Below are positions 3,069-54,471 of a DNA stretch of 64,000 bases, piece after piece (within the stretch, counting starts at the first letter, position 1; each line of letters opens with the position of its first letter). A model generated the notes under the pieces. That model had not been told where the DNA came from. It saw only the letters and a list, made by a program, of their open reading frames with translations, and did not search any database. Source of the DNA: Verrucomicrobiia bacterium (GTDB taxonomy: Bacteria; Verrucomicrobiota; Verrucomicrobiia; Limisphaerales; UBA11358); contig DASXFM010000185.1 of NCBI GenBank assembly GCA_036489615.1, positions 274 through 64,273 of the forward strand, written 5' to 3'. A program made the translations under genes and the position numbers.

Positions 3069-9626
<6,558 letters not shown>

Positions 9627-18664: not shown

Positions 18665-18808
18665 TCTTCGCAGTGCGGTTCATGTAACAGCTTTCTTCGC
18701 AGCGTTCCCGAAGTCTTCCGCCGACATTAGGCAAAGTAAGAAAGAATTTTTGCCAGAAATTTTCCGAATCATATTACAGGGAAATTGTTTTTACTTATTA
18801 AAGATTTT

Positions 18809-18834
18809 TGCAAGTTGCACACAAAAAAGTTGCA
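18809..18834. promoter_or_regulatory. TGCA box cluster at the head of the EPS operon
   Basis: TGCAagtTGCA at 18809-18819, plus TGCA at 18831-18834. Confidence 0.4.
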
Positions 18835-18936
18835 AATCGCCTTTGCGTGACACATAGCACAACGGTTTTTAGAAGTAACTGTGAGGAACTATGGCAAAAC
18901 TCAATTGGCATATTTCTTGTTAATGCAGTTCCGCGA

Positions 18937-19512
18937 ATGAAAATGGAGGCACAAGCACAAAACCCGGCGTGGTACTGCGCCAGGACAAAACCGAAGCACG
19001 AGCACATCGCGGCGGCGACGTTGCGGAAGAATCTCGGTTTGGAAGCTTTCCTGCCACGGCTGAGGGTAGAACGTGCCACGCGGCGCGGGCCGGTAAATAC
19101 CATTGAACCCCTTTTCCCCTGCTATGTTTTTGTGCGCTGCGTCATTGATGAAAGGCTTGATGAAATCAAGCACGCGAATGGCGTGAGCAGCCTGGTGAGG
19201 TTCGGCGGAAGAGTTTCCATGGTGGAAGACTCGATTATCGAAGAACTTCAAGATTGTTTTGAGGCGGATGAGCCCATGACGGTGGAACATCGCCTGATGC
19301 CCGGCAGCGAAGTATCGGTGGCCGGGGGCGCGTTTGATGGAATGCGCGCACATGTATTGCGGAACCTGCCGGCAAAACGGCGGGTGCAGGTTTTGCTGGA
19401 TATTTTAGGACAACCGACGCCAGTGGAGGTGGATCGGAGTGCAGTGATACTGATGGAAGACACCGTGGCGCATCTGGCGCCCGTGCTGGCGCGTGCGACC
19501 GTGCGCGTTTAA
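18937..19512 (+). CDS. NusG/RfaH-like (UpxY-like) transcription antitermination paralog
   Basis: WYCARTKPKHEHIAAATLRKNLGLEAFLP..EPLFPCYVFVR is an NGN domain. GSEVSVAGGAFDGMRAHVL is a KOW-like motif. The start is trimmed to MKMEAQ. Confidence 0.85.
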   Translation: MKMEAQAQNPAWYCARTKPKHEHIAAATLRKNLGLEAFLPRLRVERATRRGPVNTIEPLFPCYVFVRCVIDERLDEIKHANGVSSLVRFGGRVSMVEDSIIEELQDCFEADEPMTVEHRLMPGSEVSVAGGAFDGMRAHVLRNLPAKRRVQVLLDILGQPTPVEVDRSAVILMEDTVAHLAPVLARATVRV

Positions 19513-21689: not shown

Positions 21690-22802
21690 GTGTCCTCCGG
21701 GAATTTAATCACAACGCCTGAGTGTTTTTCACTCGGCGAAAGCCGTTCTTCCGTACGCACCACAGGCGTGCAATGGACCAATCCACTCGAGGCTTCAAAT
21801 TGGGATGCAAGGCTCAATTCACAAAATCATCCTGCCCGTTCGTTTTTTCACAGTTCAGCCTGGGCAAACGTCTTGACAGAAACTTATGGTTACAAACCAT
21901 TCTATTTTCTCACCAGTGAACCGGGTTCTTTTCATTCGCTCCTGCCGTTTATGGAAGTATCAAGCAGATTGACCGGGAAACGCGCGGTCGCCCTGCCCTT
22001 CACGGATAATTGCGATCCGCTCTGCACTGATAAGGCCGGGTTCAAAGATCTTTTTCATAATGCGATCGAGCTGGGCAAATTGCGTGGATGGAAATATCTC
22101 GAATTTCGGGGTGGGCGTAATCTTTTCGCCGGGACCCAGCCTTCTCTTTCCTATTACGGACATGGCCTGGACCTGCCGGCGAATGAAAATATGTTATTTG
22201 AGCAATTGAAAAGCGCGACGCGGCGGGCCATCCGTAAAGCCGAGAAGTCGGGGGTGCGAGTGGAAATCTCCACGGATGCCGACGCGACGGGTAGTTTTTA
22301 TGAGTTGCACTGCAAGACGCGCAAACGGCACGGTCTACCCCCACAACCCGATTCTTTCTTCAAGAACATTCAAAAGCATATTCTGGCGAAAAACCATGGA
22401 ATCGTTCTTCTGGCACGGTGGAAAAGACAGCCAGTAGCGGGCGGTATCTTTTTTCATGGGGGCGGAGCAGCGGTCTACAAATTCGGGGCGTCGGATGAAA
22501 ACTTTCAGCATTTGCGCGGGAACAATCTGGTCGTGTGGGAAGCTCTCCGTTATTTCCTGCGACGCGGGGTAAAGAAATTGGATTTAGGACGCACTTCTAC
22601 GCATAACGAAGGGCTAAGGAAGTTTAAATTAGCATGGAATGCCAAAGAAAAGAGCATCGGCTATTTTCGCTTCTCCATACCGCAGGAAAAATTTGTATCA
22701 GCACATGACGAATCCTCTGGATGGCATAACCGCGTTTTTAACGCTTTACCATCATTCGTATCTCGAACCATCGGCAATATTCTGTACCGGCACTGGGCTT
22801 AA
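21690..22802 (+). CDS. FemAB-related (Acetyltransf_6-like) protein of the type associated with PEP-CTERM loci
   Basis: FFHSSAWANVL..YGYKPFYF.., KSATRRAIRKAEKSGVRVE, GGIFFHGGGAAVYKFGASD..HLRGNNLVVWEAL. GTG start is uncertain. Confidence 0.85.
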   Translation: MSSGNLITTPECFSLGESRSSVRTTGVQWTNPLEASNWDARLNSQNHPARSFFHSSAWANVLTETYGYKPFYFLTSEPGSFHSLLPFMEVSSRLTGKRAVALPFTDNCDPLCTDKAGFKDLFHNAIELGKLRGWKYLEFRGGRNLFAGTQPSLSYYGHGLDLPANENMLFEQLKSATRRAIRKAEKSGVRVEISTDADATGSFYELHCKTRKRHGLPPQPDSFFKNIQKHILAKNHGIVLLARWKRQPVAGGIFFHGGGAAVYKFGASDENFQHLRGNNLVVWEALRYFLRRGVKKLDLGRTSTHNEGLRKFKLAWNAKEKSIGYFRFSIPQEKFVSAHDESSGWHNRVFNALPSFVSRTIGNILYRHWA

Positions 22803-27378: not shown

Positions 27379-28779
27379 ATGCCTCCAATGCTGGCATTAT
27401 TTTTGACGGTTGCATTCATCTTTTTCCTTTTCGCGAGGGATTTTCGGGAAAGGCCGAATGTTACGGCGGCGCTGTGGCTTCCGTTTCTTTGGATCGTGGT
27501 GAGTCCCGGCTCCCGGTTTTTGTCGCAATGGCTGACTATTTTTGGGCTACCGGTCGGCGGGGTGACGGTTGAAGATGGAAGCCCCATTGATGCGGCCTTT
27601 TTTCTAGCGGTAATTGCTTCCGGTGTGCTGGTGCTTCACCAGAGACGGGTTACCCTCGCCAAATTTATCGGCAACAATTATTGCCTGACACTGTTCCTGG
27701 CTTATTGCCTACTCGCGATCCTTTGGTCTGATTTTCCGTATGTATCGTTCAAACGCTGGATAAAATTACTGGGAGATCCGGCGATGGCACTGATCGTCCT
27801 TACAGAACCAGATGTGATCGAGGCGGTCACGCGATTGATGAAGCGATGCGCTTTCGTGATGTTTCCGGTTTCAATCCTGTTCATCAAGTATTTCCCCAAT
27901 CTTGGACGTTTATACGATGTTTGGGAAGGGCACCCGATGTATACTGGCATCGCCACAAACAAAAACGAGCTGGGTTTCGATTGCTGGATCCTGGGGGCGG
28001 TCTTGTTCTGGCATGCGTTGCAAGTGCTGCAATGGGACGCGGGAAGAAAGAAAAGGGACGAAATTCTCCTGTGCGCCGGCCTCCTTTGCATGGATTTATG
28101 GCTGCTCAAAATGGCTCACAGCGCGTCATCGTTCGTCGCATTGATGCTCGCGTCGGGAGTTATGCTGTTCCTAGGTTTGCGATGGGTCCAAAAACGGCAT
28201 GTTACGGGCTATTTGTTGGGTGGAATCGCGATTTGCGCATTAGCTGGCCTTGGACTCGGATTTTTGGGGAGCTTTATTCACTTGCTGGGAAGGGATGAAA
28301 CATTCACCGGAAGAACAGACATATGGCACATCCTTTGGAATTGGAAGGTCAATCCCATCGTGGGAACCGGCTTTGAAAGTTTTTGGCTGGGCGACCGCCG
28401 GGAAGCCGTCCAAAACCTTTATCCGGGACTCAACCAGGCACATAACGGGTACCTGGAAACCTATTTAAATCTGGGCGGCATCGGAGTCGCATTGACGGTG
28501 GGCATATTGCTGGCGACTTATGGAAAGTCACGCCACGAACTGTTTCGCCATTTCGAATTCGGCCGCCTGCGCATGGCTTATCTGATCGCCTTCATTGTCT
28601 ATAATTGGACCGAGGCTTCATTTCGGCAAAACGCTTTTCCGTTTTTTATGTTCTTTTTAGTGGCGATAGACATGCCGAAATCGAGAAAAGTAGTTCCAGA
28701 ACTCGTCAAGACCCCATCATACCAAGGCACTCATTGGATCATGGCCCAGGCCAAAGGCAATAATGGATTTGCCAGATAA
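27379..28779 (+). CDS. O-antigen ligase / Wzy-like polytopic membrane protein
   Basis: Multiple TM segments. LNQAHNGYLETYLNLGGIGV is the Wzy_C-type motif. Confidence 0.85.
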   Translation: MPPMLALFLTVAFIFFLFARDFRERPNVTAALWLPFLWIVVSPGSRFLSQWLTIFGLPVGGVTVEDGSPIDAAFFLAVIASGVLVLHQRRVTLAKFIGNNYCLTLFLAYCLLAILWSDFPYVSFKRWIKLLGDPAMALIVLTEPDVIEAVTRLMKRCAFVMFPVSILFIKYFPNLGRLYDVWEGHPMYTGIATNKNELGFDCWILGAVLFWHALQVLQWDAGRKKRDEILLCAGLLCMDLWLLKMAHSASSFVALMLASGVMLFLGLRWVQKRHVTGYLLGGIAICALAGLGLGFLGSFIHLLGRDETFTGRTDIWHILWNWKVNPIVGTGFESFWLGDRREAVQNLYPGLNQAHNGYLETYLNLGGIGVALTVGILLATYGKSRHELFRHFEFGRLRMAYLIAFIVYNWTEASFRQNAFPFFMFFLVAIDMPKSRKVVPELVKTPSYQGTHWIMAQAKGNNGFAR

Positions 28780-28789
28780 GGAGGTCATC

Positions 28790-30526
28790 ATGAAAGACGG
28801 TATTTTCAAATCGCACAACGTGGCTTCGCTTTTATTGGCGGCAGCTCTTTTGCTTTTAGGGAGCCAAATTGGCCGGGCAAAGACTATCACTGCTGCGAGC
28901 TGCAATTTCGCCGACGTCAACAATGCCGTGACCCAGGCGTCGGTGGGCGACATCGTACAATTGCCTGCGGGAACCAGCAGTTGGAACCAGACGCTTACGC
29001 TAAATGGGGTCTCTTTACAAGGAGCAGGGACGAATGTGACAAAGATTATAGATGAAGAACCACGTTCGGGCGGGGCACAGTTAATTATGGCCTACCCTTC
29101 TTCCGGCTCACTGACGGAGATTTCCCAAATCCAGTTTTGCGGCGGGGTCACCAATACAGGTATGAGTTATAATGGTTCAGTATCTGTTTACGGTGTTCCG
29201 GGCAGCTCATGGCGGGTGGATCACAATATATTTAATGCTCTCTACTCAAAAGGCATCGCTGCTTACGGAAACGCTTTCGCGGTCATTGACGACAACACTT
29301 TTTACGAACGCGCCATCTCCATCGCCGATAACAGCGCTTTTCCAAACGACGGCCAGGGTGACATCTCTTATTCCCAGCCGCCCACGTATGGCCTGAGCAG
29401 TTCGAACGTCCTGTATATCGAAAATAACTTCATGACTAACATCGTGGGATACGTGGCCAGTGTAGGAGCGTGTGATGGCTGTGGCGGTGCGCGGATGGTG
29501 TTTCGTAATAATACGGTTTGGGATGATTGTTTTAACAATCACGGCACCGAAACGGGAGGACGTGTTCGCGGTGAGCGCAGTTTCGAAATTTACGGCAATA
29601 TGTTTAATTTTTCCCCGAATGACTCTGGCGCTTATCCGTGTTTCGCGGCGATGCTCATTCGCAGTGGCGGGGGCGTGATTTTCAGCAATACCTGCACCGG
29701 CTATAGCTCTCTTGTAGCGTTGAGAAATTTTCGTTCGACGGACTCTTTCTGTGGCGAGTGGGATCCGTTCTGCGGCGCAAATGGAACCTCTCCCTACGAT
29801 TCAAACAGCCCTAGTTTATATTTAAGCGGGGTAAGCTCCGGCCCCAGCGGGTCCACCTATCTGCAAGTGTCCGACGCCAATTGGACCCCAAACCAGTGGG
29901 TCGGATACACTTTGATGAACGTCAACAGCGGACTCTTCTCCGTCGTGCTTTCCAACACGGCAAACACAATGACTTATATTGGAAGCACCTCGCAAACGGC
30001 GAGCCTGATCGAACATTCGGTGATGACATTCAACCCGGGCGATCCGTTCCAGCTTCATATGGTCTATGCGGCCTTGGATCAACCGGGCCGTGGTTCCGGC
30101 AATTTGTTGCAGGACCAAGGGCTTGAAACCAGTGGGACTCTCTACAATCAACTTCTTAGCGGGTTTGCAAGCTTTCTCGCTATAAGCCAGACGGGCAATG
30201 GAATCCTGGTGACAATCAATACGGCGACGGGAGTTCCTTCCTGGCCGAATGAGGCGCTTGATCCCATCTATAGCTGGGAAAATACGATCAATGGTTCATT
30301 GGCTGAAATAAGCAGCCCTTATCCGGGCATTCAGCAAGGCCGCGATTTTTATGATGACACGCCCAAGCCCGGTTACACGCCGTATATCTATCCGCATCCA
30401 CTTGATCTGAGCACTAACAGTAGCAGCGGCGGAAATAATGGTGGTGGCGGGAATGGCAATACTAATACGAATACGGGTGGTTTACAGCCGCCATCCAATC
30501 TTCAATTTAAGGGGAGCACCAACTAG
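28790..30526 (+). CDS. Secreted right-handed beta-helix-like protein (possible polysaccharide lyase, hydrolase or epimerase)
   Basis: TAAGGAGGTCATC-ATG, then a signal peptide. Recurring N-N-x-F/V turns (DHNIFN, IDDNTFY, IENNFM, FRNNTVW, IYGNMFN). G/N-rich C-terminal tail. Confidence 0.75.
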   Translation: MKDGIFKSHNVASLLLAAALLLLGSQIGRAKTITAASCNFADVNNAVTQASVGDIVQLPAGTSSWNQTLTLNGVSLQGAGTNVTKIIDEEPRSGGAQLIMAYPSSGSLTEISQIQFCGGVTNTGMSYNGSVSVYGVPGSSWRVDHNIFNALYSKGIAAYGNAFAVIDDNTFYERAISIADNSAFPNDGQGDISYSQPPTYGLSSSNVLYIENNFMTNIVGYVASVGACDGCGGARMVFRNNTVWDDCFNNHGTETGGRVRGERSFEIYGNMFNFSPNDSGAYPCFAAMLIRSGGGVIFSNTCTGYSSLVALRNFRSTDSFCGEWDPFCGANGTSPYDSNSPSLYLSGVSSGPSGSTYLQVSDANWTPNQWVGYTLMNVNSGLFSVVLSNTANTMTYIGSTSQTASLIEHSVMTFNPGDPFQLHMVYAALDQPGRGSGNLLQDQGLETSGTLYNQLLSGFASFLAISQTGNGILVTINTATGVPSWPNEALDPIYSWENTINGSLAEISSPYPGIQQGRDFYDDTPKPGYTPYIYPHPLDLSTNSSSGGNNGGGGNGNTNTNTGGLQPPSNLQFKGSTN

Positions 30527-32373: not shown

Positions 32374-32406
32374 AAACCTCCCTTGGCCATTTGGGCCAAT
32401 TCATTT

Positions 32407-33663
32407 ATGCAAACCAACGAAATCCGAAAAGTCCTGGAAAGTTTTACGGATTGGCTCGGCCATTACGGTGAAAATTCGTGGGACCATCAATCTTTTTTTG
32501 CCGGCCCCATCGGACGCCGCGCAAAGTCCCTGTATTATCATCACCGGGCAATAGGCACGGCGACGGTGGCGCCGATGATTTTTTGCGAGGCTTTTCTTCC
32601 GTCAGCGAGAATGTGCTTTCATCATCCCATTCGGGTACCAATTGCGGACGCCCATTATGCGATGGGTTTTGCCTATCTTTACGAAGCTACGGGGAATGAA
32701 TACTTTTTTGACAAGGCGGTTCATTTCCTCGAGATGCTGGAGAAAACACGGTGCACTGATTTTAAGGAATATTGCTGGGGTTATCCCTTTGATTGGGTGA
32801 CGCGGAACGGCGTGATACCGGCACGCACCCCACTTATCACCACCACACCTTATGTCTTTGAGGCGTTTTTGCAGATGGAACAGATACGGCCGCACCTGAA
32901 ATGGCGCCGGATTTTGCAATCTATTGCACGGCACGTCGCCACGGATATCAGAGATTTTCGGCTTTCAGAAACGTCCAACACCTGTTCCTACACGCCATTC
33001 GATAAAGTCGGCGTGGTGAATGCCTCGGCTTACCGCGCCTTCACGCTCACGAGCGCGTCATGGCTGTTAGGCGATGAGCATTTGACTGAAATCGCCGGGC
33101 GCAACCTAAATTTCGTTTTGGAAGCGCAACGAACGGACGGCTCGTGGCCCTACGCGGTGGATGGCAAGCGGGAATTCGTGGATCATTTCCATACCTGTTT
33201 CATCCTGAAGGCGCTTACTAAGATCTATTTCCTCACCGGGAACGAGGGATGCCTGAAGGCGATCACGAGCGGAGTGGATTTTTATCTGAAGCATCTTTTC
33301 TCGGAGGACGGCATGCCGCGGCCTTTCGCCAAGGCGCCGCGCCTGACGGTCTATCGGCACGAGCTTTATGACTGCGCGGAGTGCATCAATTTGTGCCTGC
33401 TTTTAAGGAACCACTTTTCAGAACTCGATAAAACCCTGGAAACGGTGACGGCGGGGGTTTTAGAAAATTGGATCAAACCTGACGGCTCATTCCGTTCACG
33501 CCAATTGATGTTTGGCTGGGACAATGTGCCGATGCATCGCTGGGGACAATCGCAAATGTTTCGCAGCCTGACGCTTTGCCTAAAGGAAGCGCGGGCGGCG
33601 GATGACCACCATTATGAAAACCTCGATTCCAAATACCATGTGCGGGATTTGTGGGCAGCTTAA
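32407..33663 (+). CDS. Hypothetical protein, possibly an (alpha/alpha)6-barrel polysaccharide-modifying enzyme
   Basis: Helix-pair periodicity and DGSWPYAVDG..FVDHFHTCFILKAL. The function call is weak. The ORF track starts at TTG 32383 and the first ATG is at 32407. Confidence 0.7.
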   Translation: MQTNEIRKVLESFTDWLGHYGENSWDHQSFFAGPIGRRAKSLYYHHRAIGTATVAPMIFCEAFLPSARMCFHHPIRVPIADAHYAMGFAYLYEATGNEYFFDKAVHFLEMLEKTRCTDFKEYCWGYPFDWVTRNGVIPARTPLITTTPYVFEAFLQMEQIRPHLKWRRILQSIARHVATDIRDFRLSETSNTCSYTPFDKVGVVNASAYRAFTLTSASWLLGDEHLTEIAGRNLNFVLEAQRTDGSWPYAVDGKREFVDHFHTCFILKALTKIYFLTGNEGCLKAITSGVDFYLKHLFSEDGMPRPFAKAPRLTVYRHELYDCAECINLCLLLRNHFSELDKTLETVTAGVLENWIKPDGSFRSRQLMFGWDNVPMHRWGQSQMFRSLTLCLKEARAADDHHYENLDSKYHVRDLWAA

Positions 33664-35539
33664 CTTTGCAACGGACGAACCGGTGAATCCAGAGATGATT
33701 CGCCTGATGTCGCGCTCGATGTTTCATCGGGGCCCGGACGACGAAGGCACTTTCATCTCGGGACCATTGGGGCTCGGATTCCGCCGACTCTCGATCATCG
33801 ACCTGGCGGGCGGGCACCAACCGATGGCCGACGAAGAACGGTCGGTACAAGTCATTTTTAACGGCGAGATCTACAATTTCAAAGAGTTGCGGCGGGAATT
33901 GGAGAGGTGCGGGTACCAGTTCCGCACGCGCTCTGATACGGAAGTCATCGTCCATGGTTATAAGGAATGGGGCATGGGAGTTTTCAACCATCTGAACGGG
34001 ATGTTCGGCATCGCCATTTGGGACGCGAAGTATAAGCGGCTGATCGTGGCGCGCGATCCGATGGGCATGAAGATGATCTACTATCGAATCGAAGACGGGC
34101 AACTGACCTTTGGTTCGGAAATCCGGCCGGTTCTGGCTGCGAAGGAGGCCGCGCCGGAAATCTCTCCGGCGGCGATTTCACTCTTTTTACGGTTTCGTTA
34201 TACCCCATCTCCCCTGACCGTTTTCAAAGGGGTCAAAAAACTGGCAGCTGGCACGATGCTAATCGTCGAGAAAGGAAAATGCCGGGAAGAACGCTGGTAT
34301 CAATTTACCCCCTCACCGCTTCCCGGGCGCATCAAGGATTCGGAAGCGGCGGAGCAATTGCTGGAACTTTACCGCCGGTCCGTACGACGACATTTGTCCG
34401 CGGATGTACCCGTAGGCATCCTCCTAAGTGGCGGGCTGGATTCGGCACTGTTACTGGCGTTGATGAATGAATACGGTCGGAACTGGCCTGCTTATACAAT
34501 CGGCTATGGAAAACAATTTGCGGATGATGAACTCCAATCTGCCGCCAAGACGGCATTGTATCTGGGCGCCCGCCATGTGGCGGTGAAGCTGGACCGAAGC
34601 GAATTCGAAAGAGCGCTTCCCAAGATTGTAGAATTCCTGGAAGAACCAGTCGCCAGTTCGTCAATCGTGCCGATGTATTTTATCTGCCGGCGGGCGCGGC
34701 AGGATGTAAAAGTGGCACTGGTCGGCCAGGGGCCGGACGAACTTTTTGGCGGTTATAACCGTCATCTGGGAGTTCACTATGGAAATTTGTGGCGCCGGTT
34801 GCCGAAGAAAATCCGTTCGCACCTCAGTTCGGCCATTTTACGGCTGCCCCGAAATGAAATGTTGAAACGTGGCGTCCAGTCGCTGGCAATTGAAGACCGC
34901 TTTGCGCGCTACGAAAGCATTTTCTCGCTGCACCCGGCGGAAACGGTCAAACGGTTGTTCCGTTCGGACTTTCGTCCCAATGGCGAAAGCGAATTATCCA
35001 CTTACTTGGACCCGCTTATGTCCCAGATGGAGCGCACGGATGAGCTTGGCGGATTTCAACTTCTCGAAATCCGGTCGTCGCTGCCGGATGAATTGCTAAT
35101 GTATTCGGACAAATTGTCCATGGCCCACAGCCTGGAGGCGCGGGTGCCGTATTTGGACAAGAACATCGTCGAATTTGCCCAACGACTGAATGCCAATCAT
35201 AAAATCCGCTATGGAGTCCGCAAATGGCTTCACCGCCGGGTTTGTTCCAAGATGCTTCCCACCTCAATTCTCTTCCGGAAGAAGCGCGGCTTTGCGGTGA
35301 ATGTCGTGGACGATTGGTTTAATGCGCGCGCCAAAGGGCAATTTCCCGAGATGTTGCTGGACAAGCATTCGCTGATTTTCGAACAACTGGAGCCTGAACC
35401 GGTGCGAAACCTCCTGGAGGAACATCGGATGCGGCGCCAAAACAATCATAAACTTTTATTCAGCCTGATCATATTGGAACAGTGGCTGCGCGGGATCCGC
35501 TCCAATTTTACAGAGGACCGCGCAGCCATAGCCGCCTGA
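33638..35539 (+). CDS. asnB: Asparagine synthase (glutamine-hydrolysing) family amidotransferase
   Basis: Trimmed so that the mature N-terminus is MCGICGQ (catalytic Cys2). RGPDDEG.., and the PP-loop VGILLSGGLDSA. Confidence 0.95.
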   Translation: MCGICGQLNFATDEPVNPEMIRLMSRSMFHRGPDDEGTFISGPLGLGFRRLSIIDLAGGHQPMADEERSVQVIFNGEIYNFKELRRELERCGYQFRTRSDTEVIVHGYKEWGMGVFNHLNGMFGIAIWDAKYKRLIVARDPMGMKMIYYRIEDGQLTFGSEIRPVLAAKEAAPEISPAAISLFLRFRYTPSPLTVFKGVKKLAAGTMLIVEKGKCREERWYQFTPSPLPGRIKDSEAAEQLLELYRRSVRRHLSADVPVGILLSGGLDSALLLALMNEYGRNWPAYTIGYGKQFADDELQSAAKTALYLGARHVAVKLDRSEFERALPKIVEFLEEPVASSSIVPMYFICRRARQDVKVALVGQGPDELFGGYNRHLGVHYGNLWRRLPKKIRSHLSSAILRLPRNEMLKRGVQSLAIEDRFARYESIFSLHPAETVKRLFRSDFRPNGESELSTYLDPLMSQMERTDELGGFQLLEIRSSLPDELLMYSDKLSMAHSLEARVPYLDKNIVEFAQRLNANHKIRYGVRKWLHRRVCSKMLPTSILFRKKRGFAVNVVDDWFNARAKGQFPEMLLDKHSLIFEQLEPEPVRNLLEEHRMRRQNNHKLLFSLIILEQWLRGIRSNFTEDRAAIAA

Positions 35540-35553
35540 AATTTGCCACTACC

Positions 35554-36432
35554 ATGCAAATCGACAATACAGAAATTTCTCTCAACGGAAAATTTTTCCG
35601 CATCGCGAAACTGTACCATGAATGGTTCGAGTTTTTGGATGAGCCAGCGGCATTGGTTGAAAAAATGAAAAAAAACAAACCGATCCCGGATTTGTTCACG
35701 TTTGTCCAGGAAACGCATGTGCCGCGCCCGGAATTTCCGTTTCATCGCGAGACGGCATTCGCCTCCGTACTAACGATAAAAAGTTTTGACGATTGGTGGG
35801 ACAATCTCCATTTCAAAGCCCGGAATAAAGCGCGCAAGGCACAAAAGACGGGCGTGGAAATTCATGAAACGGAATTGAACGAAGTCTTCATCCGGGGCGT
35901 AGAAAAAGTTTACAATGAATCCCCCTTGAGGCAGGGGCGGAAATTTACTCATTACGGAAAAAGCTTTGACCAAATCAAAGAAGACCTCAGCTCTTTCAAA
36001 GACAAATCCATATTTATCGGCGCTTATTTCAACGGTGAGTTGATTGGCTTTATGAAATTATTCCAGGGCAATGGGATTTTACGGACGATCCATATTATCG
36101 CTACGATCGCGCACCGGGACAAATGCGTCATGGATGCGCTCATCGCGCGGGCAGTAAAACTTTGCGACGAAAAAGGAGTTTCGTACCTGCATTACGGAGA
36201 CTGGACGTCACGCGGGCTGGGAGCGTTCCGAACCAAATATAATTTTCAACCGCAGGAATGCCCGCGATATTTTGTTCCTTTAACGGCGCGTGGGAAATTC
36301 ATGCTCAACTTCCGGTTGTATCGTCCTCTACGCGAACGGTTACCACAGTCCTGGGTGGACCGGCTGATCGCCCTGCGAAATCAATGGAATGCCATGCGAT
36401 ATGGGGCGACGAGGAGCACAGCCGAGATTTAA
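35554..36432 (+). CDS. GNAT/FemAB-like (Acetyltransf_6-like) protein
   Basis: Trimmed to MQIDNTE. FKARNKARKAQKTGVEIHE...IFIGAYFNGELIGFMKLF...DALIARAVKLCDEKGVSYLHYGDW follows the FemAB/CelD-like pattern. Confidence 0.75.
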   Translation: MQIDNTEISLNGKFFRIAKLYHEWFEFLDEPAALVEKMKKNKPIPDLFTFVQETHVPRPEFPFHRETAFASVLTIKSFDDWWDNLHFKARNKARKAQKTGVEIHETELNEVFIRGVEKVYNESPLRQGRKFTHYGKSFDQIKEDLSSFKDKSIFIGAYFNGELIGFMKLFQGNGILRTIHIIATIAHRDKCVMDALIARAVKLCDEKGVSYLHYGDWTSRGLGAFRTKYNFQPQECPRYFVPLTARGKFMLNFRLYRPLRERLPQSWVDRLIALRNQWNAMRYGATRSTAEI

Positions 36433-36440
36433 AGAATTAA

Positions 36441-36532
36441 GGAGAGGTGGCTGAGTGGCTTAAAGCAGCAACCACCTTAGGTTGTTATGCGGCTCGCCGC
36501 ATCGAAGGTTCAAATCCTATCCCTCTCCGCCA
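36441..36532 (+). tRNA. Type II (long variable arm) Ser-like tRNA gene with non-canonical anticodon arm and T-arm
   Basis: Acceptor GGAGAGG/CCTCTCC, G73, encoded CCA. D-arm GCT-GAGTGGCTTAA-AGC. Variable stem ATGCGG/CCGCAT. T-loop GG-TTCAAAT-CC. My hand fold gives an 8-nt (or 6-nt) anticodon loop and one extra nucleotide between the T-stem and the acceptor. Confidence 0.6.
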
Positions 36533-36568
36533 TTTTAAGAGTTGGTTAACCACTAAATACTTGAGTTC

Positions 36569-38353
36569 ATGCCCGGGATCGCTGGAATCATAACTTCTGC
36601 ACGGATGGAAGAGTGCCCTGCCCTCGTCAACGCCATGCTGATGACCATGAAGCATGAAAGATTCTACAAGGCGGCCACGCACTTTATACCGGAAATGAAA
36701 ATTTTTGCGGGCTTCACGGGATTTGAGGATTCCACCGACGGAATTTTTTCAAATGAAAGCGGCAATATATCACTGGTCTTTTCCGGCGAATGTTTTGTGG
36801 ACTCTAAAATCGCCAAAGGTGACAAGCTGATCCATTTATATGAAAATGAAGGGCACACGTTTATCAAAAAGCTCAACGGTCTTTTCTCCGGCCTTTTGAT
36901 AGACAAGGCACAGCGCAAAATTCTTCTCTTCAACGACCGTTACGGCATCAAACGGATATATTTTCACGAACAGGAAGGGAATTTTTATTTCGCCAGCGAG
37001 GCCAAAGCATTACTGCGGATATTACCCGACCAACGGCAATTCGACCCAGAATGCGTAGCGGATTTCCTCGCCTTCGGTTGCACGTTAAATTGGAAGACTT
37101 TATTTCGGGGCATAGAAATCCTGCCCGGTAGTTCGTTTTGGAGTTTTAAAAGCAGCCAGTGCCAGAAAGAAAAATATTTCTCACCAGAAACCTGGGAAGC
37201 ACAGCCTCAACTGACAGCTGATGATTTTGAAAGCAAGTTTCAGGAAATTTTCAGGAGGATTTTGCCAAGTTATTTTGAGCCGTCCTCAAAAGTCGGGGTA
37301 GCGCTGACGGGTGGCCTGGACACCCGGATGATCATGGCCTGCCGCCCACAAAACGACATGCAAACGGCATGCTACACTTTTTCTGGTAATAACGGGCTGA
37401 CCCTGGATGATAAGATCGCGGCACGTGTGGCGGCTGCTTCCAATTTGGAACATAACCTGTTGCGGTTGGATAATGACTTCTTTTCAGACTTTCCCGCGCA
37501 ACTCGATAAAACCGTTTTTGTCACTGATGGTTGTGCGGGACTTTCGAATGCGCATGAACTGTATTTGAACCGGAAGGCACGCCAATTGGCACCCATACGA
37601 TTGACCGGGAGTTTTGGCAGTGAGATTTTACGCAGTTTTTCAACGTTTAAGCAGGTTCCGGTATCGCAGCAGCTTTTTAATAATGATTGGCGGGCCAAAA
37701 TAAATTCCCGGCCGGGAAAAATCCAGACGGAGAATGCACAACCGATCAGTTTTGCGGCTTTCAAGGAGATTCCCTGGAACCTGTTTGGAAATTTGGAAGC
37801 GGGGCGCTCACAACTCCAATTTCGCACCCCATACCTAGACAATGAACTGGTCGCGCTGGCGTTTCAAGCACCGGAACAGATCCGAAAGTCCTCTTTACCA
37901 GCATTCCATCTCGTCCGGGCTAACAATCCGGCACTCAGCGAAATCCCTACAGACCGCGGGTTTGGCGGCAACAATTCCGGCCTGAAATTTTTATCACGAC
38001 GCGCGTTTGCCGAAATCACCTTCAAACTCGACTATTATACCATCGCCGGACTGCCGCGCCCGGCTTCGGCCCTCAATTCGATTTTCAAGTCGATTGTGGG
38101 AAAAATGAAAATCGCCGGGATGCATAAGTTTGTCCGCTACAGCAGTTGGTTCCGTAGCGAGCTGGCACCCTACGTCCGTGAAGTGCTTTCCAGCCAGCGC
38201 GTGCGCGGCAATAGTATTTGGAACCAAGATTTTTTAAATCAACTTGCAGCGGCGCACATTGCAGGAAATCACGACTATTCCGCAGAGATCAACTCCGTGA
38301 TGACCTTAGATGCCATCGAACGGTGCCTACTGCATGGGTTTTCTGAAAATTAG
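36569..38353 (+). CDS. AsnB-family protein lacking the N-terminal catalytic cysteine
   Basis: It starts MPGIAGII, where the family has MCGI. The synthetase-domain PP-loop is retained as VGVALTGGLDTR. Confidence 0.85.
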   Translation: MPGIAGIITSARMEECPALVNAMLMTMKHERFYKAATHFIPEMKIFAGFTGFEDSTDGIFSNESGNISLVFSGECFVDSKIAKGDKLIHLYENEGHTFIKKLNGLFSGLLIDKAQRKILLFNDRYGIKRIYFHEQEGNFYFASEAKALLRILPDQRQFDPECVADFLAFGCTLNWKTLFRGIEILPGSSFWSFKSSQCQKEKYFSPETWEAQPQLTADDFESKFQEIFRRILPSYFEPSSKVGVALTGGLDTRMIMACRPQNDMQTACYTFSGNNGLTLDDKIAARVAAASNLEHNLLRLDNDFFSDFPAQLDKTVFVTDGCAGLSNAHELYLNRKARQLAPIRLTGSFGSEILRSFSTFKQVPVSQQLFNNDWRAKINSRPGKIQTENAQPISFAAFKEIPWNLFGNLEAGRSQLQFRTPYLDNELVALAFQAPEQIRKSSLPAFHLVRANNPALSEIPTDRGFGGNNSGLKFLSRRAFAEITFKLDYYTIAGLPRPASALNSIFKSIVGKMKIAGMHKFVRYSSWFRSELAPYVREVLSSQRVRGNSIWNQDFLNQLAAAHIAGNHDYSAEINSVMTLDAIERCLLHGFSEN

Positions 38354-52395: not shown

Positions 52396-52986
52396 ATGAA
52401 AAGTAAATTGATTGGTATGGCGGCGACCGCAATGGTCGTCCTGGGTGTAGGTGGAATTGCTCAAGCGGTTCCGATTAGCGGCGACATCACCTTTGCTGGT
52501 GGCGTAACTCTCAACACTTCCTCGGCAGGAACTGCCGCTGAGGTTTTGAATTGGACTGGTCCCGGCGGCACAGGTTTGCCGCTTGTTATCAGCGATGACG
52601 GAAGCTTTTCCGGTATTGCGCCCGGTACAACGGCAACGTTTGCAAGTCCTTGGTTTTTCAACTCGGGATCGGTGACGGCGCTGTTCACAGTGGGTGGCTT
52701 TACGTATAACCTAACTTCATCACATATCATTTACCAAGGTGGGAACCCCGCCGGCGTGGTGGTGGACGGAATTGGCTCTATCTCGGGGAACGGCCTCGAC
52801 TCGGAAGCCATGGACTGGAGCTTCTCCACGTCCGATCCGTCCGCTCTCGGAGTAGATGCTGCGGTGTTCTCGTTTCAAGTGGCGGCAGGCACGACGGGAA
52901 CTGTTCCGGATGGTGGCACGACCGCGATGCTGCTGGGCTTGGGCGTCCTCGGGCTTGGCTTGCTGAAGAAACAGATCTTCGCTTAA
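52396..52986 (+). CDS. PEP-CTERM sorting-domain protein (exosortase substrate)
   Basis: Signal peptide. The C-terminus GTVPDGGTTAMLLGLGVLGLGLLKKQIFA carries a VPDGG variant of the PEP motif, a TM helix and a basic tail. Confidence 0.9.
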   Translation: MKSKLIGMAATAMVVLGVGGIAQAVPISGDITFAGGVTLNTSSAGTAAEVLNWTGPGGTGLPLVISDDGSFSGIAPGTTATFASPWFFNSGSVTALFTVGGFTYNLTSSHIIYQGGNPAGVVVDGIGSISGNGLDSEAMDWSFSTSDPSALGVDAAVFSFQVAAGTTGTVPDGGTTAMLLGLGVLGLGLLKKQIFA

Positions 52987-53109: not shown

Positions 53110-54471
53110 ATGAATCCAAAACTGCTCATCGTTGATGACGACGAAGAAATTCGCACACAAATGAAGTGGGCGTTGGCAAAGGATTATGAAATCCTCCTGG
53201 CCGGCGACCGGACTGAAGCAGTAGAAAAGTTTTCTACGGAAAAGCCTTCTTCAGTTTTGCTCGACCTTGGTTTACCGCCCCATCCGGGAAATCCTGAAGA
53301 AGGCCTGACAGCGCTATCCGAATTGCTGGCCATCGACCGGCTCGCCAAAATTGTCATTATCACAGGCCAAAATGAAAAAGAAATCGCCCTCCGTGCCATC
53401 GGCGCCGGTGCGTATGATTTTTTATGCAAACCGGTCCAGACGGAGGAACTCAATTTTCTTCTAAAGCGCTGCGTTCACGTCACGCAGTTAGAGAAGGAAT
53501 TTGCCTGGATACAGAGTTCTTTTGGCGGCGAACCCTTTGAAGGAATCCTTGGCGGCAGTCCTAAAATGCGACCAGTTTTCGAGATGATCCGCAAAGTGGC
53601 AACCACCGATGCCTCGGTGCTGATCCTTGGAGAAAGCGGTACGGGCAAGGAGATGGTGGCACGCGCGGTTCACAATAAAAGTGAGCGATGCGGCGGACCC
53701 TTTATCGCAATCAATTGCGGCGCCATCCCGGAAAATCTCCTGGAAAGTGAATTGTTTGGGCATGAGCGCGGCGCTTTCACGGGTGCCCATGTCCAGCGCC
53801 AAGGCAGGATCGAAACGGCCAACGGTGGAACATTGTTTTTAGACGAGATCGGCGAAATGCCAGCGCCATTGCAAGTGAAATTGCTCCGGTTTTTGCAGGA
53901 ACAAACTTTCACGCGAGTCGGCGGACGGGAGGAAATCCAGGTCAATGTTCGCGTCATCGCCGCAACGAATGCCGATCTGCAAAAGCACATGACCGAAGGC
54001 AAGTTTCGTGAAGACCTATTTTATCGGCTCGCGGTAGTGCAAGTTTTATTGCCGCCGCTGCGGGAGCGTGAAAATGACATTCAACTGCTGGCGAAATTTT
54101 TCTTACAGCATTTTGCTACGGATGCCAACAAACCTGACCTCGCCTTCGATACAGACGCCTTGCGCGCTTTGAACAAGCATCTCTGGCCTGGAAATGTGAG
54201 GGAGCTGGAAAATTGTATTCGCCGCGCGGTGATCATGGCCGATGGCAGGCGGGTAACGGCGCATGACCTGGAATTGAACGGCAATGGAATCAAAACCAAC
54301 GGCGCGGTGACCATGAAAGATGCACGCGAAGCGGTGGAGCGCCAGATGGTGCAGCAGGCATTGAGAAAATATTCCGGCAAAATTACGCCTGCAGCCGCAG
54401 AGCTTGGATTAAGCCGCCCGACTCTTTATGAGTTAATGGGAAAATTAGGAATCACTAAAGAAGCTGCCTAA
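53110..54471 (+). CDS. prsR: Sigma-54-dependent response regulator (NtrC family; PrsR-like PEP-CTERM-box regulator)
   Basis: REC with LLIVDDDEEIR..VLLDLGLPPHPGNPEEG..GAYDFLCKP. AAA+ domain with GESGTGKE and GAFTGA (GAFTGA loop). C-terminal HTH. Confidence 0.95.
   Translation: MNPKLLIVDDDEEIRTQMKWALAKDYEILLAGDRTEAVEKFSTEKPSSVLLDLGLPPHPGNPEEGLTALSELLAIDRLAKIVIITGQNEKEIALRAIGAGAYDFLCKPVQTEELNFLLKRCVHVTQLEKEFAWIQSSFGGEPFEGILGGSPKMRPVFEMIRKVATTDASVLILGESGTGKEMVARAVHNKSERCGGPFIAINCGAIPENLLESELFGHERGAFTGAHVQRQGRIETANGGTLFLDEIGEMPAPLQVKLLRFLQEQTFTRVGGREEIQVNVRVIAATNADLQKHMTEGKFREDLFYRLAVVQVLLPPLRERENDIQLLAKFFLQHFATDANKPDLAFDTDALRALNKHLWPGNVRELENCIRRAVIMADGRRVTAHDLELNGNGIKTNGAVTMKDAREAVERQMVQQALRKYSGKITPAAAELGLSRPTLYELMGKLGITKEAA

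Follow-up and report, generated by a model that had tools for sequence, protein, structure and literature searches.

We show that a conserved, structured and non-decoding tRNA-Ser derivative is genetically coupled to a protein of predicted Fem/MprF fold and to a cysteine-less asparagine-synthetase-like (AsnB-like) protein in polysaccharide operons. The copy studied here is 92 nucleotides (nt) long and lies at 36441-36532 (+) of the window, the whole 64,000-nt stretch of verrucomicrobial DNA that was analysed. The 292-amino-acid (aa) protein encoded just upstream, at 35554..36432 (+), is called T292 below, and the AsnB-like gene follows the RNA. The element is real and belongs to a large, previously unannotated RNA family. 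The explanation that we favour, with a probability of roughly 60%, is that a tRNA-Ser descendant has permanently left translation and would act as an operon-encoded carrier of an aminoacyl, most likely seryl, group for a Fem-like glycan aminoacyl-transferase.

Structure of the RNA family

The window RNA reads GGAGAGG UG GCU GAGUGGCUUAA AGC A GCAACC ACCUUA GGUUGU U AUGCGG CUCG CCGCAU C GAAGG UUCAAAU CCU A UC CCUCUCC G CCA. The initial annotation, made from the window sequence, called it an atypical Ser-like tRNA gene, and the features that it listed are all present: the acceptor stem, G73, CCA, the D-arm, the 6-base-pair (bp) variable arm AUGCGG/CCGCAU, the T-loop and a spacing of 13 nt from the T-loop to G73. 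The class-II body is thus kept with its long variable arm, Ser-type D-arm, G73 and a T-loop of the UUCRAAU type. Its parts are as follows.

36441..36532 (+): tRNA-Ser-derived, non-decoding tRNA-like gene with encoded CCA; 95.1 bits with the covariance model R1, structure supported by covariation
36441..36447 (+), pairing with 36522-36528: acceptor stem GGAGAGG/CCUCUCC, near-invariant in 85 copies
36450..36466 (+): D-arm GCU-GAGUGGCUUAA-AGC, with a 3-bp stem and an 11-nt loop holding G18G19; D-loop type as in the canonical tRNA-Ser(UGA) of a related locus (L070)
36468..36485 (+): former anticodon arm, a 6-bp helix GCAACC/GGUUGU with the 6-nt loop ACCUUA and no anticodon
36487..36502 (+): long variable arm AUGCGG-CUCG-CCGCAU, a hallmark of class-II tRNAs; compensatory changes at five of six pairs in the 85 copies of the family
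36504..36521 (+): T-arm GAAGG-UUCAAAU-CCU[A]UC; one A, at 36519, bulges out between positions 63 and 64, in agreement with the minimum free energy fold
36529 (+): G73
36530-36532 (+): CCA

The family was collected from two sides. In the protein-anchored set, a T292 alignment scanned against one genome per species gave 19 loci. In the RNA-anchored set, a DNA pattern of the bulged T-arm and the acceptor 3′ strand gave at least 120 loci on metagenome contigs. The carrier genomes recovered are metagenome-assembled genomes (MAGs) throughout. The covariance model R1 was built from a MAFFT alignment of 16 protein-anchored copies; in the window it finds one copy only, at 95.1 bits, and no second one.

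The cloverleaf tested consists of a 7-bp acceptor stem, a 3-bp D-stem, a 7-bp helix at the place of the anticodon stem, a 6-bp variable arm and a 5-bp T-stem with one bulge. In the MAFFT alignment of the 16 copies, which is the independent result, 97.3% of the cells are paired and nine pairs have changes on both sides. The observed pairing values were matched by 0 of 500 shuffles, and only 43–61% of the cells stayed paired when the partners were slid by 1–3 columns. The alignment of 85 copies, biased towards the structure by being fitted to the covariance model, has 98.1% of its cells paired and compensatory change at 13 pairs.

Several nucleotides are near-invariant in the 85 copies, among them G1:C72, G2:C71, A3:U70, G4:C69 and the fully invariant C11:G24, as well as G73 (84 of 85). 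U8, the D-loop G15, G18G19 and the T-loop UUCRAAU are likewise near-invariant, and position 48 is an invariant C that we read as a putative Levitt pair with G15. Of 109 distinct copies, 80 encode the CCA and 29 do not.

A decaying tRNA-Ser pseudogene or an integration-site remnant would explain why the standard tRNA finders reject the window RNA, and the initial annotation had named a lack of conservation or expression as the sign of such decay. The conservation found is strong and extends across Verrucomicrobiota orders and Acidobacteria-type loci, beside proteins that are 30–50% identical. With 9–13 compensatory pairs and near-invariant functional nucleotides, the pseudogene explanation is effectively refuted by covariation and is barely credible.

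The outer T-stem had been drawn with G:U and A:A pairs, and this part of the earlier fold has to be revised. Both covariation and energy favour five Watson-Crick pairs (G49:C65, A50:U64, A51:U63, G52:C62 and G53:C61) with a single bulged A in the 3′ strand; the bulged cloverleaf of the window RNA reaches -32.0 kcal/mol versus -29.6 kcal/mol for the G:U/A:A fold. Against GGAGG/CCU[U or A]CC as the consensus of the family, the window's GAAGG/CCU[A]UC shows a compensatory change from G:C to A:U at pair 50:64. Across the 85 copies this pair is G:C in 80, A:U in 3 and G:U in 2. The base bulged between 63 and 64 is present in 83 of them (U in 70, A in 13) and absent in 2; one RNA without it is at L011. 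Because of this single bulge, 13 nt separate the T-loop from G73 in the window RNA rather than the 12 of an uninterrupted architecture with 7-bp acceptor and 5-bp T-stem.

The former anticodon arm had been found to lack a 7-nt loop of the Y-U-NNN-R layout, and in the window GCAACC/GGUUGU indeed closes the 6-nt ACCUUA. The covariance fold yields no normal anticodon loop for the family either; the helix is capped by a tetraloop or by an arbitrary loop. The helix has 6–8 bp in the family; over the 85 aligned copies it counts 7 bp, and all seven pairs covary. The loop is 4 nt long in 74 copies and of the GNRA type in 65 (GCAA 47, GAAA 13, GUAA 5), the remaining ones being UUCG, CUUG, UCAC-type or arbitrary loops of 5–7 nt. 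The window loop and its nearest relatives belong to the arbitrary-loop group, with UCUUUU at L103 and L122 and UUUUAUG at L001, L002, L017 and L084. The structure appears to be under selection, and the anticodon does not.

General tRNA searches overlook such genes. ARAGORN reports no tRNA gene in the window and gives inconsistent labels to the relatives, such as "tRNA-??? gcaa", "tRNA-Stop tta" and "tRNA-Val cac". No Rfam model, RF00005 included, matches the window at its gathering score, and the gathering score also misses six of the seven relatives tested (L001, L003, L007, L009, L016 and L035). At a permissive E-value, the best sense-strand match is tRNA-Sec (RF01852) with 25.6 bits versus a gathering score of 47. 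An antisense match to the Plastid-psbI-rps4 3′ untranslated region, 29.6 bits, is the reverse complement of a plastid trnS-like 3′ half and was discarded as no feature of the locus.

A decoding tRNA of unusual function, be it an ochre suppressor, a quadruplet or frameshift decoder or a recoder of the allo-tRNA/tRNA-Sec type, would fit this tRNA-Sec match, the ARAGORN call 'tRNA-Stop (tta)' for the four relatives with the 7-nt loop UUUUAUG and the 4-base 'anticodons' called in others. However, the loop sequence varies even among close relatives, and the 4-nt loop on a 7-bp helix of most copies cannot present an anticodon. The window loop lacks the U33-NNN-R37 layout as well. Moreover, the covariation fits 7 + 5(bulged) and not 8/5, 9/4, 8/4 or 9/3, and the D-arm is of the Ser type and differs from that of tRNA-Sec, a 6-bp stem with a tetraloop. 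We consider any decoding role highly improbable.

The individual registers were rejected on similar grounds. As a tRNA-Sec, the window RNA would have U-C and G-U as its eighth and ninth pairs, has no UCA anticodon and scores far below the gathering level. The 8/5 and 9/4 registers of tRNA-Sec and allo-tRNA need U-C and A-A mismatches, whereas 7 + 5(bulge) is fully Watson-Crick and covaries. For the 8/4 and 9/3 registers of allo-tRNA, it is seven acceptor pairs and five T-stem pairs that are supported, and the 3-bp D-stem with an 11-nt loop is not Sec-like. A canonical decoding tRNA-Ser is rejected by the lack of a 7-nt loop with U33, a Ser anticodon and R37, by the interruption of the T-stem by the bulge and by the failure of the general tRNA models to find it.

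Two further subfamilies were recognised. The second, also Ser-type (L023, L034, L035, L037, L040, L042, L043, L049 and others), is marked by GGAGAGGUC and by a D-loop that is short (GUUGGCUAA). A CUUG-type loop caps its 8-bp helix, and its variable arm, of 5 bp, abuts this helix directly. In this subfamily 98.3% of the cells are paired, with 12 compensatory pairs, and the T292-like gene lies 3′ of the RNA wherever it was found; three short contigs gave no match. The third (L070, L075, L077, L085, L108, L125 and others) shares the acceptor and the bulged T-arm and has an ACACGG-type variable arm. Either very little of the anticodon arm is left, as with CCGCAUGCGG or a C(UUCG)G hairpin, or about 25 nt are inserted in it. 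At L070 and L125 a canonical tRNA-Ser(UGA) lies 1.6–3 kb from the RNA.

Genomic coupling and partner proteins

The RNA is present in 17 of the 19 protein-anchored loci and stands directly after T292, 10–200 nt downstream, in 16. At L010 it is 4.4 kb downstream of T292, and at L015 a different deviant tRNA precedes T292. In these loci T292 is 46–69% identical to the window protein, and GGAGAGG...CCUCUCC-G is nearly unchanged.

From the RNA side, linkage was assessed in 35 loci, those among the ones listed with at least 2.6 kb of upstream and 1.2 kb of downstream flank. A member of the T292 family is beside the RNA in 31 of these 35 listed matches. Twenty-six were recognised by a hidden Markov model and open reading frame (ORF) rule and five by tblastn (L035, L048, L049, L074 and L099), with the match starting 40–150 nt after the RNA. 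The other four (L070, L075, L077 and L085) all carry the third RNA subfamily.

The order of transferase, RNA and AsnB-like gene, which the initial annotation proposed to compare among related loci, takes three recurrent layouts. These are T292, RNA and AsnB-like, as in the window; RNA, T292-like and AsnB-like; and T292-like, sulfotransferase-like, RNA and AsnB-like. Of the 105 loci listed whose downstream flank measures 600 nt or more, 64 have an AsnB-like gene no farther than 1.5 kb downstream of the RNA. The organism labels on the T292-like proteins in these layouts include Acidobacteria, Pedosphaera and, in the case of one cluster, a Bathyarchaeia MAG; all these proteins are hypothetical or unnamed.

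Two side observations concern these loci. The protein between the T292-like gene and the RNA, about 330 aa long (L113:3780-4763, L105:1471-2463, L031:5260-6210 and L061:1572-2549), shows by eye sulfotransferase-like motifs (PHRSGST ... ITRDPRA). Three MAGs, with loci L005, L006 and L008, are labelled Bifidobacteriaceae or Candidatus Limnocylindrales, yet their loci are otherwise typical of Verrucomicrobiota and L008 is nearly identical to L013; their taxonomic labels or binning are probably wrong.

In the window, the T292 gene ends with TAA at 36430-36432, leaving a spacer of 8 nt before G1 of the RNA, and 36 nt separate the encoded CCA from the ATG at 36569. The + strand scan of 35300-36800 for sigma-70-like promoters and intrinsic terminators yielded none and was uninformative, its counts being at the shuffle level. 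A gene of the RfaH/UpxY antiterminator type lies upstream at 18808-19512. Given the two short gaps, the lack of + strand signals nearby and the antiterminator gene, the simplest reading is that the RNA would be co-transcribed with its flanking T292 and AsnB-like genes.

The two protein members of the trio are the following.

35554..36432 (+): T292, 292 aa, predicted tandem-GNAT, Fem/MprF-like aminoacyl-tRNA-dependent transferase, so called from its predicted fold and its adjacency to the RNA
36569..38353 (+): cysteine-less asparagine-synthetase-like protein with GATase_7 and Asn_synthase domains, start MPGIAGI and PP-loop TGGLDT

T292 has 806 homologues, all unnamed or hypothetical and without a Pfam domain, and those with an organism name come from Verrucomicrobiota MAGs. 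A profile search of 1.84 billion representative proteins returned 645 clusters (50% identity) at E <= 1e-10. T292 itself has no match in NCBIfam. Its AlphaFold2 model has a predicted local distance difference score (pLDDT) of 86.6 and a predicted template modelling score (pTM) of 0.80.

In a Foldseek search of the PDB, the best matches of this model are Sba18 and Sbb17 (9wqy/9wqw), with E of about 5e-11 to 1e-10 and a template modelling (TM) score of about 0.6. They are followed by Weissella FemX, the aminoacyl-phosphatidylglycerol synthase domains of MprF and FemA, and the TM scores span about 0.55–0.61 overall. T292 also lacks the acetyl-CoA motif Q/RxxGxG/A at the presumed beta4-alpha3 junction, as read from the sequence and the secondary structure of the model. 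The window has a FemAB-family protein at 21690..22802, and in hhalign only a 24-residue Fem-type motif of T292 aligns with it, xxRxxxRKAxKxGV.

The initial annotation had called the upstream protein FemAB/GNAT-like. The predicted fold bears this out and the sequence does not, its sole hint being a sub-threshold LPG_synthase_C match. T292 is therefore Fem/MprF-like by predicted fold only, and we presume it to be the user of the RNA.

The AsnB-like protein is the third member of the conserved trio. The Cys nucleophile of its glutaminase is replaced by Pro, so that it starts with MPG and not with the catalytic MCG, and the MPG start is conserved in the distant homologues inspected.

Sister RNAs and the proposed carrier function

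Three of the 85 Ser-type copies, including the GGGGAGG copies at L009:6896-6988 and L119, have G3·U70 in the acceptor. G3·U70 is the main determinant for alanyl-tRNA synthetase (AlaRS), and such copies may be dual Ser/Ala acceptors.

Apart from these, some loci carry RNAs of other amino-acid types. At L015:5876-5948 (+), a class-I cloverleaf just before the T292 homologue at 6001-6846 has the bacterial alanine identity set in full, with G2:C71, G3·U70, G4:C69 and A73 (PMC9976931). Its anticodon arm has 6 bp and a UUUA tetraloop, its T-stem has no bulge and its T-loop is UUCGACC. The 72-nt RNA at L105:1147-1218 (+), between T292-like and sulfotransferase-like genes, has GGGGAGG/CCUCUCC (G3·U70), A73 and no T-stem bulge and is called Ala(agc) by ARAGORN. 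It looks like a Ser-type scaffold with the variable arm deleted.

Four more sisters are of glycine or threonine type. The RNAs at L007:8052-8127, L012:7122-7197 and L113:3659-3734 have G1:C72, C2:G71 and NGU-A loops and are presumably threonine-like by the Thr identity set. The RNA at L060:3033-3108 has G1:C72, C2:G71, G3:C70, U73 and a UCC loop, matching the bacterial glycine set (PMC9976931). All four are class-I with U73, lack G18G19 and have the T-stem GGAG[U]G/CCUCC with the bulged U on the 5′ strand, and Rfam scores them as tRNA with 44–55 bits. They stand after T292 paralogues (L007 and L113) or after the Ser-type RNA (L012 and L060). A coherent pattern suggests itself from these sequences: the anticodon is lost only where the synthetase ignores it (Ser, Ala), and is kept, at least in bases 35 and 36, where it is read (Gly, Thr).

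The carrier function that we favour would proceed in five steps. The RNA would be transcribed in the polysaccharide operon between the T292 and AsnB-like genes and be released by RNase P and 3′ processing. Then the housekeeping seryl-tRNA synthetase (SerRS) would charge it through the acceptor stem, G73 and the long variable arm while ignoring the anticodon, as serine identity is anticodon-independent (PMC9976931). The charged RNA would not decode, because its anticodon loop is replaced by a capped helix. The affinity for EF-Tu is set by the T-stem pairs 49:65, 50:64 and 51:63 (PMC3239215). Since the bulge at 63a lies within these three pairs, EF-Tu affinity is probably reduced and the charged RNA would stay available.

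At last, T292 would move the seryl group from the RNA 3′ end to an intermediate of the exopolysaccharide, either a sugar or a lipid-linked glycan, by analogy with Sba18/Orf11 aminoacylating an amino sugar. The cysteine-less AsnB-like enzyme would act in the same pathway, possibly by turning an adenylated carboxylate into an amide. The initial annotation had already proposed a dedicated carrier outside the ribosome, probably a seryl one, for a Fem-like enzyme, and this proposal may well be right in that it passed each computational test run, namely linkage, fold and the SerRS elements.

Several observations weigh against this function. As to the RNA, the RNA-anchored pattern itself fixes the T-arm and the acceptor, so the conservation of both is independent only in the 16-sequence protein-anchored set. 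The T-stem bulge might impair SerRS, RNase P or CCA addition. The third subfamily stands alone in unrelated contexts, away from T292 and AsnB-like genes; its copies may serve enzymes encoded elsewhere or do something different. At L006 the T292 and AsnB-like genes are adjacent and the covariance model finds no RNA. The 120-nt spacer there (L006:1776-1900) ends with ...CGCUCCACCA and folds no better than shuffles, and it may be a degenerate remnant of the RNA.

As to T292, its sole Pfam match is LPG_synthase_C, the aminoacyl-tRNA-dependent C-domain of MprF, and with 17.1 bits it is below the cut-off of 27.5. No Fem, MprF or DUF2156 sequence model reaches threshold on it. The T292 profile searched against PDB sequences returned spurious cyclophilin matches only. 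Furthermore, the CoA-dependent tandem GNATs VipF and NMT share the fold, although they come lower in the Foldseek list with lower TM scores.

The cargo could instead be something other than serine. The AsnB-like enzyme would then be the main partner, either loading an adenylated acid on the 3′ end or transforming the bound residue in a SelA-like manner, and T292 would transfer the product. The AsnB-like gene is directly 3′ of the RNA in two of the three layouts and follows T292 in the third. AsnB-like enzymes adenylate carboxylates, and this one keeps the PP-loop TGGLDT without the glutaminase Cys; full exclusion from translation also matters most for a non-proteinogenic cargo. On the other hand, the retained elements are exactly those of SerRS, or of AlaRS, GlyRS and ThrRS in the sister RNAs, which a private loader could do without. 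The side chain of serine offers no carboxylate for adenylation, and we know of no AsnB-type enzyme that acts on tRNA. A non-serine cargo seems rather improbable to us.

The RNA could also be a structural or processing element that recruits RNase P/Z to cut the mRNA between the T292 and AsnB-like genes for their stoichiometry or stability, or a scaffold that binds a protein. Its place in the operon agrees with this, the gaps being 8 and 36 nt wide and the + strand showing neither promoter nor terminator close by, and punctuation of transcripts by tRNAs is established in mitochondria and some bacterial operons. However, a minihelix of acceptor and T-arm suffices for RNase P. Processing leaves unexplained the conserved G73, the CCA encoded in most copies, the covarying variable arm and the elbow nucleotides of the D-loop and T-loop, as well as the complete Ala or Gly identity sets of the sister RNAs. 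The RNA that is 4.4 kb away from T292 at L010 does not suit it either. Such a role is quite improbable.

The sister RNAs also allow the seryl carrier function to be extended, in an unlikely reading, to a modular pathway of 'aminoacyl-carrier RNAs'. Ser-, Ala-, Gly- and Thr-type carriers, removed from translation via anticodon-loop loss and/or the T-stem bulge, would each have their own Fem-like transferase, and the AsnB-like enzyme would load or transform the RNA-bound residue. A non-proteinogenic residue or a short peptide would be built on the RNA and then moved to the exopolysaccharide.

The wider locus and known systems

The window is an exopolysaccharide locus of the XrtA/PEP-CTERM type, with PrsT, an export protein, Wzy-like and Wzz/kinase proteins, many glycosyltransferases and a VPDSG-CTERM protein. 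No aminoacyl-tRNA synthetase gene is among the window ORFs scanned. Two of its other genes bear on the enzymes discussed above.

33638..35539 (+): canonical glutamine-dependent AsnB-type amidotransferase with the start MCGICG; TIGR01536 at 447 bits, over the cut-off
21690..22802 (+): FemAB-family protein of the XrtA/PEP-CTERM type; Pfam FemAB at 68.5 bits, TIGR03019 at 126.7 bits for a cut-off of 260

The former is similar to the XrtA/PEP-CTERM amidotransferase family and is syntenic in the closer relatives. The latter is a possible second consumer of aminoacyl-tRNA. A 426-aa protein at 32383-33663 (+) has no match in Pfam or NCBIfam and is syntenic with T292 in most related loci, at 24–71% identity. 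A 587-aa protein at 28763-30526 (+) likewise has no match in these two, and a 2185-aa ORF spans 3069-9626 (-). A small protein at 52396-52986 (+) ends with the VPDSG-CTERM sorting signal, and a sigma-54 response regulator at 53110-54471 (+) flanks the polysaccharide locus.

If the carrier function is true, the family would be a widespread case of tRNA turned into a pure amino-acid carrier, with the synthetase-facing elements kept and the anticodon loop made into a capped helix. Hypothetical proteins in about 645 clusters (50% identity) would thereby gain a role. The carrier function would also predict that abundant soil Verrucomicrobiota and Acidobacteria decorate their exopolysaccharides with amino acids, a modification not found described in the literature searched. 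The genes form a hidden class, the window RNA being overlooked by both ARAGORN and the Rfam gathering score, and most of the relatives tested by the latter. As possible tools, they may offer translation-orthogonal tRNA scaffolds of natural origin, as well as a natural test of the effect that a T-stem bulge has on EF-Tu.

A full-text literature search, with most subscription journals outside its coverage, found no account of anticodon-less donor tRNAs or of tRNA-dependent aminoacylation of polysaccharides. To our knowledge, aminoacyl-accepting tRNAs keep their anticodon, including the staphylococcal cell-wall tRNA-Gly, with tmRNA and tRNA-Other as the exceptions.

Among known systems, tRNA-Sec, selC* and the allo-tRNAs (PMC5389517, PMC7609411) resemble the window RNA as SerRS-type class-II molecules with non-canonical acceptor/T geometry, and tRNA-Sec is kept from normal EF-Tu use. 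Some minor tRNA-Sec and selC* species even have a T-stem bulge, A51a (PMC5389517, PMC7609411). However, they decode, their 7-nt loop presenting UCA or another anticodon; their branches are 8/5, 9/4, 8/4 or 9/3, and the D-stem has 6 bp. The window RNA differs in its 7-bp acceptor, its 5-bp T-stem with a 3′-strand bulge, its Ser-type D-arm and its missing anticodon.

The tRNA-like domain of tmRNA and the tRNA-Other of Bacillus cereus (PMC5389517, PMC3985003) are alike in being aminoacylatable without a working anticodon. However, tmRNA has no lower half at all; it binds EF-Tu and SmpB and enters the ribosome. For its part, tRNA-Other is a regulatory pseudo-tRNA. Neither is known to be paired with a transferase gene.

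From their PDB entries, we take Sba18 and Sbb17 to be aminoacyl-tRNA-dependent peptide synthases bound to streptothrisamine, with streptothricin-like antibiotics as their products. We know of no cluster-encoded dedicated tRNA for these enzymes or for FemX. By the PDB descriptions, both appear to belong to the Orf11 family. These Orf11-type amide synthases and Weissella FemX (PDB 9wqy, 9wqw, 7z6a, 1ne9; PMC12945691) share the tandem-GNAT fold as the best structural matches of T292, with a sequence identity of only 12–15%. Orf11 moves glycine from Gly-tRNA to an amino sugar (PMC12945691), and such transfer of an amino acid from its tRNA is the chemistry proposed for T292. The review of these enzymes mentions no dedicated tRNA for them (PMC12945691).

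The non-proteinogenic tRNA-Gly species of Staphylococcus (PMC4574755, PMC12256121) come closest of the known systems, as specialised aminoacyl donors for a Fem-type transferase, a role that genomic coupling suggests here. They are charged by the housekeeping synthetase and feed FemXAB in pentaglycine synthesis, and their T-stem and D-loop deviations are thought to weaken EF-Tu use (PMC4574755, PMC12256121). Yet they keep a normal UCC anticodon loop and the normal 7/5 architecture and reside in tRNA gene clusters. In the window RNA, the anticodon loop is gone, the T-stem is bulged and the gene sits in a biosynthetic operon beside the enzyme, one for exopolysaccharide and not for peptidoglycan.

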